Positions 1 through 40,400 of a stretch of DNA of 64,000 nt are shown one piece after another. The DNA is from Flaccisagitta enflata (Eukaryota), in contig OZ231126.1 in NCBI GenBank assembly GCA_965153355.1, positions 3,224,001-3,288,000 of the forward strand. The letters are read 5' to 3'. The position numbers and the translations under genes are program-made. Position 1 is the stretch's first letter; the number at the start of each line of letters is the position of its first letter. The notes under the pieces are model-generated. The model was not told where the DNA came from and ran no database searches. It was given only the letters and a program-made list of their open reading frames with translations.

Positions 1-92
1 GTGTGTTTGTAAGTGTGTGTGTTTGTGTGTTTGTATGTGTGTGTGTTTGTTTGTGTGTGTGCGCGAGTGCGCGAAAGACATATATCATCGAC

Positions 93-3000
93 CTTTATTT
101 GATTTTGCGCTTTGACGTCTTCGATGGTTATTGCAAACTGAGGAGCCAGCTGCGGAAGTTCTCGGGTGTTTTTTCTGCCTGGACAAAAAACGCCAGGCGG
201 TGTCTGGAACACACTGCCATGTGAGAAGAACGAGAAAACCGTGCAGATAATTACAGGGTGTGCAAAACAAAAATCGGAATGTCGAGAGAATAAGCGCACT
301 TCCACTTGAAATTCTAGTTGATCTAGTGACATAAGATTTCACTTTCGCAGTCCAGTATTTTCTCAGTTCAAATCTTTACTGGTCCAAATGCAAGAATGCT
401 TTTATTCCTGTTCACTTTTACCATATTTTCTATTTTTTCACACCCTGTTATTCACTTTGTCAACGCATAAGCTCATGGCTCCACACCCAGTACATTTTTC
501 TAGATGAAAAACCATGTCTCGTTTTTAAAACAACATTATTCTTAATCAGGTGAAATCGAGAATGAAAAGAAACATATGCAAATTATAGAGAGGTTATGTT
601 CAATATGGATAGAGATGGAGGAATAGACTGATTTATCAGTAAATACCATACCTTGGATCACCTGATAATCCGGGCTCCCATTTGACATACTCATAGACGT
701 GAGAAAAGTACTCCACTCCACCTGGTAGCAGATATTCCCATCAAACGAGGTAATAGTTGATTGAAAAAAGGAGGGTACATTGGAGCGGCATTCTAGAATT
801 GGATGATCTTTTAAAACTTTCCGTCGCCGAGAATCAGATTAAATTCATGGAACTATGCCGGGTGGTTCAAAAAAAGTTTTTTTTAAACTTGGTCGCAATA
901 TGGCTCCAATCACCAAAATTTGTGACTGGCTCATTATGGAAGAAGGAACGGACAGACAAAAATCAGCAAACAAAAACAAGGCCGGACACTCGGCACCCAA
1001 ATCGTGGATGGCTGGGCAGGGGCAGTAATGCAGAAACCGCTCGCTATTCAAAAATGTGACGTGACGTGATGTGACCTATGACCTACCAACCGACACAGCA
1101 AGTTCTGGAGTAGTGTTAAAAAACACGAAATTTTAAGACATTTTAAGAACATAATATCTGTACCTGTGTAATTGACCTTTTCGCCATACCACTTGGCGGC
1201 AATAGGTATTTGTGACTTTCCTGTGGGAGATGTCCATCGATCCTTGTTGTCAAAATACCACAGAATAGTGACCATATTTATGCCCATGTCTGGAATAGGG
1301 CCGGAAAACTTCCAAAGATGACAAGGAATGCCGCGAGCCTCGTCCTCGCCTACGTATGTCTCGTTCAAGCTCCCTCCAAATCTGTTAAAGCAATTGGATG
1401 TACCGCCTCGAGCGTACCCGCTTTTTAAGGCGAAATCGCCTCTTAGGAATAACACCTAAAATCCACTTCAATACCAATAAAGGCAGCTAATCGCCGTAGG
1501 AAAAAAGTCGTAAATGCTGAGAGAGAGAGAGAGAGAGAGAGAATGAATGAGAGAGAGAGATAAAGAGAGGGACAGATGGATGGACAGACAGACAGATAGA
1601 TGGATGGACAGACAGACGGAAGGACAGACAGACAGATGGACAGACGGACAGAGAATGACACAGAGAGAGAACGCTTGTTTTTCCACTTGAAAGAACGCTT
1701 GTTTTTCCACTTGAAAGTACGCTTATTTTTCCACTTTTTCACCATGAATAGACTGATGGACCAACAGACCAACAGATGGTCTGATGGATAGAAGAGTGAG
1801 AGACTTTGCTGCTAGCATGTACAATCATCATCTGGGACAATTTGAAGTTCAAATAGACTTCAATATTGAACTTAATTCCTTATTTTTGGGAAAAATGCGA
1901 AATATACAAAAAAATAGAAAAAAATTCAGAAAATCATAGCTCTGAAACTATAGATCGCACAGAATTCTGTTGGCGTCATCTGAAAGAGGAGATTAGCTCT
2001 TTCTTAACCATTAATTTCATGCATAGTCTCATTTGGCCCCAGAAATTGATCAACTTTCTCAAACCACTAATGAGAAAAAGAGAAAATCAATTTCCGCCGA
2101 AGGACTCAAAAAGCCGAAGGTATTCTTCGTCTTTTTTCCAAAAAATTTTCGTTCTGCGGACACGCATCTCTATTTATAGGAGTTTTGTCCGTCCGTCCGT
2201 CGAAGTCAAATACACTCTTTTTTTTTGAGTAAGGACAAAGTTTATAAGGACGTGAGGCTGAAATTCTGCCAAAAATTAAGGACATTTTGAGGACAAAGCT
2301 CAGCCTCAAATTTGAAAAAAAAATTTTTTTGATTCATAATTTGAATTGTTCTTACATAAATTCTTAGAAAAAATAACCTTATCAAACAAGAAACTATATA
2401 TTACATAACTATATAAAACCATATTGCTATTAATAGCAGTTACTGTCATATCTAACTTCTACCAATAAAGGCGGCTCTCGCCGTAGGAAAAAAGTCGTAA
2501 GTGCGAGGTTTTGGAATTTTTTTTTATGATATGTTTTGTACGGTTGTTTTTGCCTTTTTTTTCTTCTCTAGGCATCTTTGGTTTGTTCCACTCTCTACAT
2601 GTGTTTCTCTGTTTGAGACAGAGGCATCCAACCCCCATCCACACCCCTACCCAAACCCCCGCACACAAGCATCTAGAATGCTTGTTTTTCCACTTTTCCA
2701 ATTGGATGGACAGACGGACCAACAGACCGATGGATGGACTGACAGACAAAACCTCTCATAGAGTCCAGAGTTGAAATGAGAGAGAAACTGTGCTGCCAAG
2801 GTTCACAATCATCACCTGGGACATTTCAAAGTTCAAATAGACTTCAATTAACTCGATTCCTTGTTTTGGGGAAAAATGCAAAAAATGCGAAAAAAATATA
2901 AAAAGATGTTAAAAATCATAGCTCAAAACTATGATCAAGAATTCTTGGCGTCATCTGAAAGAGGAGAATTAGTTCTTTCTTAGCTATTAATTTCATGCGT

Positions 3001-37400: not shown

Positions 37401-40400
37401 AGAACTTCCGCAGCTGGCTCCTCAGTTTGCAATAACCATCGAAGACGTCAAAGCGCAAAATCAAATAAAGGTCGATGATATATGTCTTTCGCGCACTCGC
37501 GCACACACACAAACAAACACACACACATACAAACACACAAACACACACACTTACAAACACACACACACAAACACATACAAACACACATACAAACACACAT
37601 ACAAACACACACACATACAAACACACACACATACAAACACACACACACACACACACACACACACACACACACACACACACACACACCCTGGTATGCTTGC
37701 TCTCGGTAGGGGGGCATTCGCCACGGGCCCCATTACGGAAGGGGCCACGTGCTAGGGGCCACGGAGTGTTGATGGGTAAGGGGCCACGGCTGTTGATGAG
37801 CAAGGGGCCAGGGCTGTTGATGAGCAAGGGGCCACGGCTGTTGTTAAGCTACTCTGCCACTTCAAAATATATTGTTGGAAAGTTGTAGCAAATTTTGTTT
37901 TAAACAATGTTCTCAAAATATTGATACTTTTGCGTGAATACATGAAAATGTGTTTCCATAGCAACCAACACTCATGGGCAACAAAGCATCGTTTCATTAG
38001 TCTATATTCCAAATATCAGCCTCTTAAGTAATTTTTTCTTCCTGTAATGTATTGCACACACACACACAATTCGGGTCCTACTGATACAACTCTATTTATA
38101 GAGACTTGATCCGTCCGTTAGTCCGTTACGTTCCACTTGAGAACGCGAAAAACGCACCTTCATGTTGCTGCAGTTGTTTTTTTTTTTTTTTTTGTGTGTG
38201 TGTGTGTGTAACAGTGAGGGTTTTGGGTGAGGCTGGGGTTGAATGCCCCCACCCACCCGTCACAACGATATTGTGACCTTGCGTAACTTGTTCCTCTCTT
38301 TTCGCATTCTTTTTTTTTCTTTTTTTTCTATCTAGATACTTCTTTCTATACCTGATCTCATTCACTCATTCTTTATTTGACTCTTCCTTTTTTTGGGCGC
38401 GCCAACGTACCTCTATCACTGGCTGTGTTCGTTGGTCTGTTTGTCGGTTGGTCGGACGGTAACACATTCGTTTGACGATCCACACGGTGCACCTTATTGG
38501 CCTTGTTTTTCTTATTTTTAGATGCGTCCACGCATCTCTATAAGAGGCTTTGTCCGTCCGTCCGTCGGTCGGTTGGTTGGTCGGTCCGTGGTGATCGAGT
38601 TGAGAATGATGAAAATGCATAGAATCTTGGAAATATCTCAGATTATTGCATCATTCCACAAGGTTGATGCAATATTGCATCATTCTTAACAAGCTAAGCC
38701 GCATGTGGACGCATCGTTGTACCCCCGGGGTACTTGTTTCCTTTAGTTTCTTTCATTTATGATTGGTTTTGACTTTCTATCAGCCACTTTTTAGTCGGAC
38801 TGTCGGTCACAATTTACTTTTTAGTTCGTGTTTACTGCCCGTGTCCGCAAGCACGGCGCGTGTTATCAATAACTTAACCCACGTTACCTGATTTTTGTGG
38901 CAGCGTACGACTCGTTTTTGGTACGATCAGCCTCGTCTGTTGGCACGATACGATCATATTCCGACGATGGTGTTTGACGACATGGACGACATTGAGGACT
39001 TTGAAGGGGTCGCAATCAGGGAAATTCACGACTTTAGGACCGGCTTGGCTTACACCATCGATCAAATTAAAGGTGAAAAAAATCTAGGTTGTTATACATG
39101 CTTGTAAGAAAAGGAAGCGGATCGTATTAGTTTTGTATTTTGTTTTGCTTTTTTTTTGTCGCAGAAAAACATTTTGGAATTTCAATCCCCGTAAAAAGCT
39201 ACAGCTAAAAAACTATCCAAATTTAATATTTTTTGAATAATGCTAAAAATGCAATTTTTCACTGGTTTTCTTGCTATAATTCTTCACTGGGAATGAAATT
39301 CCAAAAATGCTCTGATGAGGCTAATTGTATGGATATAAGCTTCCATTCCCTACCTTATATGTTTTTCTTCATGTCGCGGTTTAGGCTGTAGGGAAGGGGG
39401 TGCTACAGTTTTTGAAAGATTAACTTCTTGTATTTCACTTTCGTCTGTAATAGTGACAATTATTTAGAAAGAGCGAAAATGCGCATTTCACTTATGCGCA
39501 TTTCCACTTACACCAGTACGCAGTTCCCACCCATTCATGATGAGATTCAAATTTGTTTCTGGGTCCTTGCAATTTTCTAAACCTTTCTGTCGTTCTCCTC
39601 ATGTAGCTACATGTCTCTAAGTCGGTCTTCTGGTCACTTTGTCTGGCCATATTTTTATCTGTCTGTCTCTCTGTCTCTTTCTCTCTCTCTCTCTCTCTCT
39701 CTCTCTCTCTCTCTCTCTCTCTCTCTCTCTCTCTCTCTCTCTCTCTCTCTCTCTCTCTCTCTCTCTCTCTCTCTCTCTCTCCACTCTCTCTCTTCCCAAC
39801 AGGCAACTGTTCGATTCGTTTTCTGCGGGACTCAATTGACGTACGTCCACCCTTTGCCGGTGACGATTCCCCCGTTCCAAGTGAGTTGTTGCTCAACAGG
39901 TGTCTCAACTGTCTCATGAAGGAAGGAAGGAGAGAGAGAGAGAGAGAGAGAGAGAGAGAGAGAGAGAGAGAGAGAGAGAAGAAGAAGAAGAAGAAGAGAG
40001 ACAGTGGCAAATATACTGACAGAGAGATAGAAAGGCAGACGGACGGACTGAGACAGGCAGGCGGACGGATGGACGGACGAAAACAAGGAGAAACAGAGAA
40101 ACGACGAAGAAAGGAGAGAATGCATGACGAGTCAGACATTTTGAATTGGCAGTCATGAAGAATCCGATGGAGATATTTCACCCGGAAGACTCTGAATTTC
40201 AGTACGTAGGACGCCGATACCTCAGAGATACCGAAGTCCACGTTTGGATTGGTAAATTGACTCTGGAATGTGGATTGTGGACATGGTTATGAGCAATATG
40301 GATTAAGTGGAACTGTCGTGAGGGGGTCGACAGTTACCCTGAGCTTTTAAAGACGCTCTCCGGCCATTCTATCCACACTTAGTTGTAAAAAACGTTTCCA

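Follow-up and report, generated by a model that had tools for sequence, protein, structure and literature searches.

Long inverted repeats are known both from living chromosomes and from sequencing libraries. The palindromes of sex chromosomes (primate and mouse X/Y, willow) possess gene-bearing arms of more than 10 kb with tracts of perfect identity; arm identity exceeds 99%, the arms enclose unique spacers of kilobase scale, and the genes are present as whole copies. Inverted duplications with terminal deletion and the products of breakage-fusion-bridge events start at a break and turn at a short inverted microhomology, and in 21 of the 21 human junctions sequenced the arms are separated by a single-copy spacer of 766-70,466 bp (PMC3907307). 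On the technical side, 0.55-0.6% of nanopore genomic reads are of the fold-back type, and in some of these the halves abut directly (PMC12870357); after multiple displacement amplification palindromic reads amount to about a third (PMC13265396), and a contig misassembled on a single chimeric read has been described (PMC7500977). Here we analyse a 64,000-nt stretch of the Flaccisagitta enflata genome (GenBank assembly GCA_965153355.1, contig OZ231126.1, positions 3,224,001 to 3,288,000 of the forward strand; hereafter the window), more than half of which is occupied by an inverted repeat that cuts a conserved Kelch-type gene at its axis. This repeat is likely to be a technical fold-back read built into the assembly, and not a feature of the genome.

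The window contains no N and no soft-masked letters. The inverted repeat covers positions 1-37562, its two arms mirroring each other about a loop of only 14 nt (Table 1), which is framed by a 6-nt stem (CATTGT at 18866-18871 and ACAATG at 18886-18891); folded as DNA, the 60 nt around the apex have a minimum free energy of -6.9 kcal/mol. An exact-seed scan retrieved arm pieces of 2811, 2147, 1492, 1266, 1149 and 1005 nt that are 100% complementary. Minus-strand self-blastn matches chain across the entire repeat, pairing 1-1652 with 37562-35897 (97.1% identity), 1519-12542 with 35974-24944 (96.4%) and 12826-17422 with 24568-20014 (95.0%), together with a weak match of 17871-18208 to 19684-19395 (76.8%). 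Inverted symmetry on this scale is not producible by chance. The outermost 1485 nt of the left arm are 100% identical to 36078-37562 right up to window position 1, so that the window edge truncates the repeat, and a non-mirrored flank follows the right arm only because its partner falls outside the window. The initial annotation, which described a near-perfect palindrome of at least 37.5 kb turning on a loop of about 14 nt, was accurate as to minimal extent, axis and loop, but 'near-perfect' is not an apt description of the arms. Their global alignment (19,245 columns) places only 12,390 columns (64%) in 14 perfectly identical tracts of at least 150 nt, the largest of 2081, 1531, 1485, 1260, 1169 and 1141 nt; the remainder consists of sharply bounded blocks of 200-1300 nt, and in the inner part identity falls to ~65-70%.

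The inner part bears on the origin of the repeat. Within the innermost 1.1-1.5 kb on each side of the apex (17423-18878 against 18879-20013) the alignment contains 954 matches, 135 substitutions and 413 gap columns; on either side the copies stay homologous until a few nt before the loop, and at 17422/20014 identity jumps abruptly from ~70% to 100%. The divergence does not look evolutionary. The right copy measures 1135 nt against 1456 nt on the left, and is therefore 321 nt (22%) shorter, with 118 gap events (367 nt) compared with 31 (46 nt) in the left copy. When only introns are considered, gap events number 89 on the right and 22 on the left (p 9.6e-11), and the imbalance persists under two alternative scoring schemes (76 versus 10 and 48 versus 6) as well as in an independent blastn alignment of the block (65 versus 6). 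Evolving copies do not predict such an asymmetry, because both intron copies should drift alike. Homopolymers are affected in the same direction: of the 73 left inner runs of at least 3 nt, the right copy has 47 in a shorter form and none in a longer one, while the reverse comparison, starting from the right inner runs, finds 16 of 49 shorter and 7 longer in the left copy.

The substitutions are equally one-sided. In double-stranded DNA, fixed mutations give rise to both complementary types about equally often; a read of a single strand does not. Among the 30 inner substitutions that are secure, with two matching positions to either side, 18 are C in the left copy and T in the reverse complement of the right copy, that is, G>A on the plus strand of the right arm, against a single case of the complementary change (C>T on the plus strand; p 7.6e-5). 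The other secure transitions, read in the same left-to-right sense, are T>C (3) and A>G (0). A count based on blastn gave 21 and 8 transitions against 0 and 3 of the complementary types, and the C>T changes lie mostly outside CpG (3 of the 18 contexts are NcG).

Published nanopore behaviour offers a close parallel. Spealman et al. describe reads that turn low-quality past an inverted-duplication junction, with mismatches and missed bases; the part read after the junction is shorter in a consistent manner, as re-pairing of the first arm behind the pore drags the strand along (PMC7229812). According to Delahaye and Nicolas, who counted on the read strand, errors between A and G are 3-5 times as frequent as transversions and those between C and T only slightly raised, deletions dominate, errors lean to A/T, and the ordinary read error is 6-8% (PMC8486125). 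The right inner block resembles these errors in being shortened and rich in deletions, and in showing purine-only transitions on the plus strand, with G>A more frequent than A>G. The repeat as a whole also matches the fold-back long reads: the same locus is present on opposite strands with almost nothing between the halves (the 14-nt loop), and the half beyond the junction is shortened and degraded in a strand-specific manner. Unlike in such reads, the arms here are not identical throughout; moreover, they are known from the finished sequence alone, and the artefact must invoke haplotypes or incomplete polishing. Most likely, the contig preserves at this point an uncorrected piece of a nanopore read.

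A read signature at a continuous junction also bears on the possibility that no folded molecule was ever involved and that two haplotypes or paralogous loci were laid head to head by a purely computational misjoin. There is a precedent for this in the 2013 draft of Adineta vaga, in which large gene-bearing palindromes with arms differing at the allelic level were later attributed to assembly error (PMC8494291), and the outer blocks of the present repeat look allelic as well. The Adineta palindromes, however, were ascribed to the scaffolding of phased haplotypes, whereas the junction described here is continuous, no Ns occurring in the window, and is accompanied by errors of the read type, which together imply a physical fold-back molecule. 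Nor would an arbitrary join leave the arms homologous on either side up to a few nt from the loop. The right inner block bears a strand-specific, read-level error signature of the type found after a physical inverted junction. We therefore regard a computational misjoin as very improbable.

In the scenario that we favour, a DNA molecule would have folded back physically, through snap-back or template switching while the library was being prepared or the whole genome amplified, the turn taking place at the 6-nt inverted microhomology and leaving the 14-nt loop. The single folded molecule would then have been read by the nanopore in the orientation of the window plus strand (left arm, loop, right arm), and the assembler would have used this read to extend the contig beyond the true sequence; the contig would thus pass the 3' end of the Kelch gene and the DNA downstream of it, turn 115 nt upstream of its exon A and return over the same locus. 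The segment 18886-20013 would retain the poor base calls that follow the inverted junction, with no correcting reads placed on it, as these would fit the clean left copy better. Farther out, the same reads would have corrected both arms to an identical sequence, and exact identity over 64% of the columns with abrupt edges is indeed what would result from both arms drawing on the same reads or graph nodes. The remaining outer differences may reflect arms that adopted different haplotypes of a heterozygous animal or that stayed partly uncorrected, haplotypes sorting the reads wherever they differ enough and collapsing into one consensus elsewhere; such a haplotype explanation of the outer blocks is plausible. 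An adapter-like insert was not visible at the apex by eye, no search with adapter sequences having been made.

The gene cut off at the axis provides a further line of evidence. When the 200 stop-to-stop frames of at least 75 aa in the window were all scanned against Pfam, the only matches above the cut-offs were Kelch motifs near the axis and a photolyase/cryptochrome gene in the right flank. A search with one Kelch exon returned P0001 (667 aa) and P0002 (657 aa), two full-length relatives that show 87% conservation between them and each carry BTB, BACK and Kelch domains (in P0001, BTB at residues 96-201 and BACK at 208-310, besides the Kelch repeats). The left arm contains, on the minus strand, the last seven exons of a gene of this BTB-BACK-Kelch (KLHL-like) type: tblastn aligns them with P0001 residues 431-667, all seven are bounded by AG/GT, and the spliced product of 236 residues plus stop is identical to P0001 residues 432-667 at 230 of the 236 positions (97.5%), without gaps and with the same stop, and to P0002 at 224. 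In the right arm exons D-G are intact, being held in identical tracts (16282-17422/20014-21154 and 15267-15576/21815-22124), and the copies of the first three exons (A'-C') are disrupted in the tblastn alignment. The duplication of a Kelch 3' end proposed in the initial annotation is confirmed.

Neither arm holds a complete gene: only the last seven exons are present, and they encode only the Kelch-repeat part (residues 432-667) of the three-domain protein. The intact 3' part of 236 codons ends at a distance of 115 nt from the loop, exon A starting at 18756, and P0001 residues 1-430, which comprise BTB and BACK, gave no credible match in the whole window at E values up to 50 (best 0.19). The closest named Kelch homologue, Pecten maximus KLHL13, is only 35% identical, which points to an animal of a sparsely sampled group; exon A searched against 1.84 billion proteins yielded 3741 matches at E<=0.001, to generic Kelch repeats, the sole additions being P0002 and P0024, a fragment of 99 aa. 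The repeat is not a transposon bounded by long terminal inverted repeats, because the arms hold host-gene exons 97.5% identical to the protein of a relative. The earlier preference for an artefact over a real palindrome gains support from this gene cut at the apex, from the inner asymmetry and from the absence of a spacer.

A real palindrome, 37.5 kb or more in length and with a loop of 14 nt, cutting a conserved KLHL-type gene or situated inside its giant intron, with arms kept identical in part by gene conversion and one side of the centre garbled by nanopore assembly, is on the whole unlikely, but a number of observations speak against the fold-back artefact. They come mostly from the outer arms, about a third of which differs, by ~5.5% substitutions plus indels. 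With a single scoring scheme used for all divergent blocks, the nine outer blocks (6.1 kb) pooled amount to 5,833 aligned pairs, of which 318 (5.5%) are substituted, with 204 indel events besides. The robustly aligned substitutions comprise 74 transitions and 39 transversions, and most of the larger blocks have roughly as many gaps in one arm as in the other. Polarised by paralogous copies of transposable elements (TEs) as outgroups in four segments, a fifth segment (2805-3110 versus 1821-2135) having been excluded because it aligned at only 47%, the differences include derived states in both arms (73 in the left, 38 in the right and 7 in neither), and the polarised plus-strand transitions are split between purines and pyrimidines (38 versus 24, p 0.098), alongside 49 transversions. 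In these respects the blocks resemble natural variation more than read noise, and an artefact thus requires both a heterozygous animal and haplotype sorting in the consensus. The inner block, too, has features that fit less easily: its errors relative to the left copy amount to ~9% substitutions and 25% missing bases, a level that exceeds the ordinary nanopore 6-8% and fits only the special case of post-junction reading, and a real palindrome could also show one unpolished arm if the correcting reads all went to the cleaner arm. The platform, the support by a single read and the haplotype origin of the outer blocks are here inferred.

One outer block departs from the balanced pattern. In 12258-13095, compared with 24288-25240, the left arm is 115 nt shorter and has 47 gap events against 16 in the right arm; the left arm has shorter versions of 40 of the 79 right-arm homopolymer runs, and the changes polarised by paralogues are mainly left-derived (25 versus 7). 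Here the left arm seems to have kept a patch that escaped correction. For the outer blocks, an origin of all arm differences in raw read noise is not supported, and CpG decay was rejected as the source of the substitutions, with CpG context in only 41 of the 558 outer substitutions.

Other peculiarities of the arms concern their repeats. A compound (TG)n/(TC)n microsatellite of ~0.6 kb (15638-16276 and 21164-21753) occupies the last intron of the Kelch gene, where the arms differ chiefly in repeat length, and microsatellite indels of 34 nt and 52 nt occur elsewhere. Each arm also contains two inverted repeat pairs of ~78% similarity (in the left arm 11055-11284/12840-13065 and 13712-14081/14307-14673), both AT-rich and TE-like and located where the outer blocks diverge most; the copies of the second pair are 81.7% alike in the right arm and 77.8% in the left.

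If the repeat were real, it could be either old or young. The older version posits an inverted duplication of the Kelch 3' end and of at least 18.7 kb of downstream DNA, through fold-back at a break or replication template switching, after which the arms diverged by 5-10% and were patchily re-homogenised by arm-to-arm gene conversion, giving the 100% tracts; the left Kelch gene would then be functional only if the right arm lay in a very large intron, as a duplication-inversion (DUP-INV) insertion. The alternation of perfect tracts of 0.15-2.1 kb (12,390 of the 19,245 columns) with sharply bounded diverged blocks accords with this view, as do the natural substitution spectrum, the mostly balanced indels and the derived states in both arms noted above. 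G+C content is also higher in the identical domains (40.7%) than in the diverged ones (36.3%), the outcome expected of GC-biased conversion, and conversion between arms is well documented in large palindromes (10.1101/800185, PMC8981503, PMC8327919). The inner asymmetries, on the other hand, are unlike those of two evolving copies, intron deletions standing at 4:1 and complementary substitutions at 18:1. The 73 left-derived against 38 right-derived states are likewise unexpected for exchangeable copies. Truncated gene copies should decay, but both arms have retained exons D-G in intact form, and the left copy shares 97.5% of its residues with P0001; furthermore, within the 45 kb upstream there is no exon for residues 1-430. 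Our own initial reading was of this kind, an old palindrome maintained by gene conversion with its right copy decayed to a pseudogene, but it was given up as the main explanation because the inner asymmetry extends to introns and is strand-specific. We now consider an old palindrome quite improbable.

The centre of the repeat is also difficult to reconcile with a natural structure of either age. Like sex-chromosome palindromes, the repeat has gene-bearing arms of more than 10 kb with perfect-identity tracts; unlike them, it shows 95.0-97.1% identity in the main matches (95-97% overall) and ~65-70% in the inner part, cuts its gene at the axis and has no unique spacer beyond the 14-nt loop. Known stable palindromes have spacers of kilobase scale, and those of sequenced human fold-back duplications, as cited above, measure 766-70,466 bp (PMC3907307); a single-copy spacer of hundreds of bp to kilobases, as in inverted duplications with terminal deletion, is absent here. 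The poorly matching centre of 2.6 kb might be counted as a spacer, but we read it as technical. Like those duplications, the repeat does turn at a short inverted microhomology (CATTGT/ACAATG, 6 nt), which is weak evidence because any palindrome is symmetric at its axis.

A very recent inverted duplication, possibly heterozygous, would have identical arms whose apparent differences consist of haplotypes and of nanopore errors after the junction. The evidence for a physical fold-back applies to it as well as to the artefact, the intact 3' end of the gene is what a young event would leave, and a 6-nt inverted microhomology falls within the 2-8 bp of real fold-back junctions (PMC3907307). The loop is nevertheless far from the minimum of 766 bp among the 21 of 21 sequenced human junctions with a spacer (PMC3907307). 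At normal coverage the right inner block should have been cleaned by oppositely oriented reads and by those lying wholly within the right arm. Such a duplication would, moreover, destroy the gene or grossly enlarge its intron, despite the 87% conservation between P0001 and P0002, and is a priori far rarer than fold-back reads at 0.55-0.6% of nanopore genomic reads (PMC12870357). All told, a recent duplication appears as improbable as an old palindrome, and a fold-back molecule taken up by the assembly remains the explanation that we prefer.

If the repeat is an artefact, ~18.9 kb of the contig would represent a false inverted duplicate, and a conserved Kelch-like gene would be annotated as truncated and partly duplicated, its true 5' part having to be looked for on another contig. 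The case would then show how such artefacts can be recognised from finished sequence alone, the telltale signs being a stretch shortened one-sidedly after the turn and transitions restricted to the purines of one strand. If it is real, a nearly spacer-less palindrome of this size lasting in an animal germ line would be unusual and worth studying for the way in which it escapes hairpin-driven breakage.

Table 1. Coordinates of the inverted repeat and of the gene segments within it (window positions).
Feature	Position	Strand	Mirror	Remarks
Left arm	1-18871			Cut by window start; exact-seed scan, self-blastn, global alignment
Loop at axis, 14 nt, GAAGCAGGCGGATG	18872-18885			Flanked by 6-nt stem
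Right arm	18886-37562			Mirrors left arm
Left inner block	17423-18871	-		Clean; Kelch exons A-C and introns; exons open, canonical AG/GT
Right inner block	18886-20013	+	17423-18871	Degraded mirror; stop in pseudo-exon C' (19417-19476)
Last seven exons of BTB-BACK-Kelch (KLHL-like) gene	15309-18756	-		tblastn, splice sites, spliced translation
Kelch exons, in order	18615-18756, 18381-18478, 18055-18184, 17044-17195, 16598-16703, 16351-16413, 15309-15329 (with stop)	-		
Mirror Kelch exons D-G	20238-22082 (~20241-20392, 20733-20838, 21023-21085, 22062-22082)	+		tblastn; identical to left copies
Most divergent outer region	9504-14685		22706-27999	AT-rich, TE-like, internal inverted repeats
Divergent blocks	9504-9928, 10208-10578, 11047-12140, 12258-13095, 13395-14685			4.5-10% substitutions, plus indels
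Two divergent blocks	2427-3092, 5017-5624		34411-35066, 31877-32486	Separated by 100% tract 3093-5016
ORF-like segment of second gene	1060-1368	-	36195-36503 (+)	

The initial annotation also had half of a second gene duplicated by the repeat. One conserved segment resembling an open reading frame (ORF) is indeed present in both arms (Table 1), its product being 91% identical over 103 aa to P0168, a 107-aa fragment, and only to this extent is the duplication of a second gene confirmed. The segment received no family assignment, 'ependymin' appearing only as an Atlas lead below the 0.9 threshold. A Pfam match to 'Strabismus' nearby (1446-1811, E 0.007) was rejected, being below the cut-off and based on a low-complexity translation. 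Rfam and tRNA scans gave no matches.

A dispersed family of minisatellites with related units of 20-21 nt (type GCCTCTCAGGCCTCAAATCCA) is found at 3645-3841, 4283-4500, 17515-17692, 47232-47424, 52439-52523 and 55706-55961, and at the mirror copies 33003-33220 and 33662-33858; in the copy of the right inner block (~19822-19968) the periodicity is lost. The family probably belongs to a transposable element.

Beyond the repeat, the right flank contains exons of a photolyase/cryptochrome-family gene on the minus strand (55276-62079), with a DNA_photolyase domain in 61305-61939 (E 6e-12 and 2e-6) and FAD_binding_7 in 57373-57753 (E 1e-21) and 56932-57357 (E 1e-8). FAD_binding_7 also matches weakly at 55276-55680 (E 0.003), with the same end of the profile as at 56932-57357, and this additional match may represent a duplicated or decayed exon. 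Adjoining short-period tandem arrays fill ~2.6 kb at 51269-53924, with a 9-mer (ATTTTGGTC) in ~79 copies at 51269-51992 and ~39 copies at 52680-53032, and 14-mer and 11-mer arrays continuing to 53924; AT skew is strong in this region (about -0.34 to -0.36). Finally, a translated motif recurs in several frames at 34700-35060, 38380-38650, 44560-44800, 46930-47120 and other places, suggesting a multi-copy element derived from a short interspersed nuclear element (SINE) or another TE and scattered in the window.

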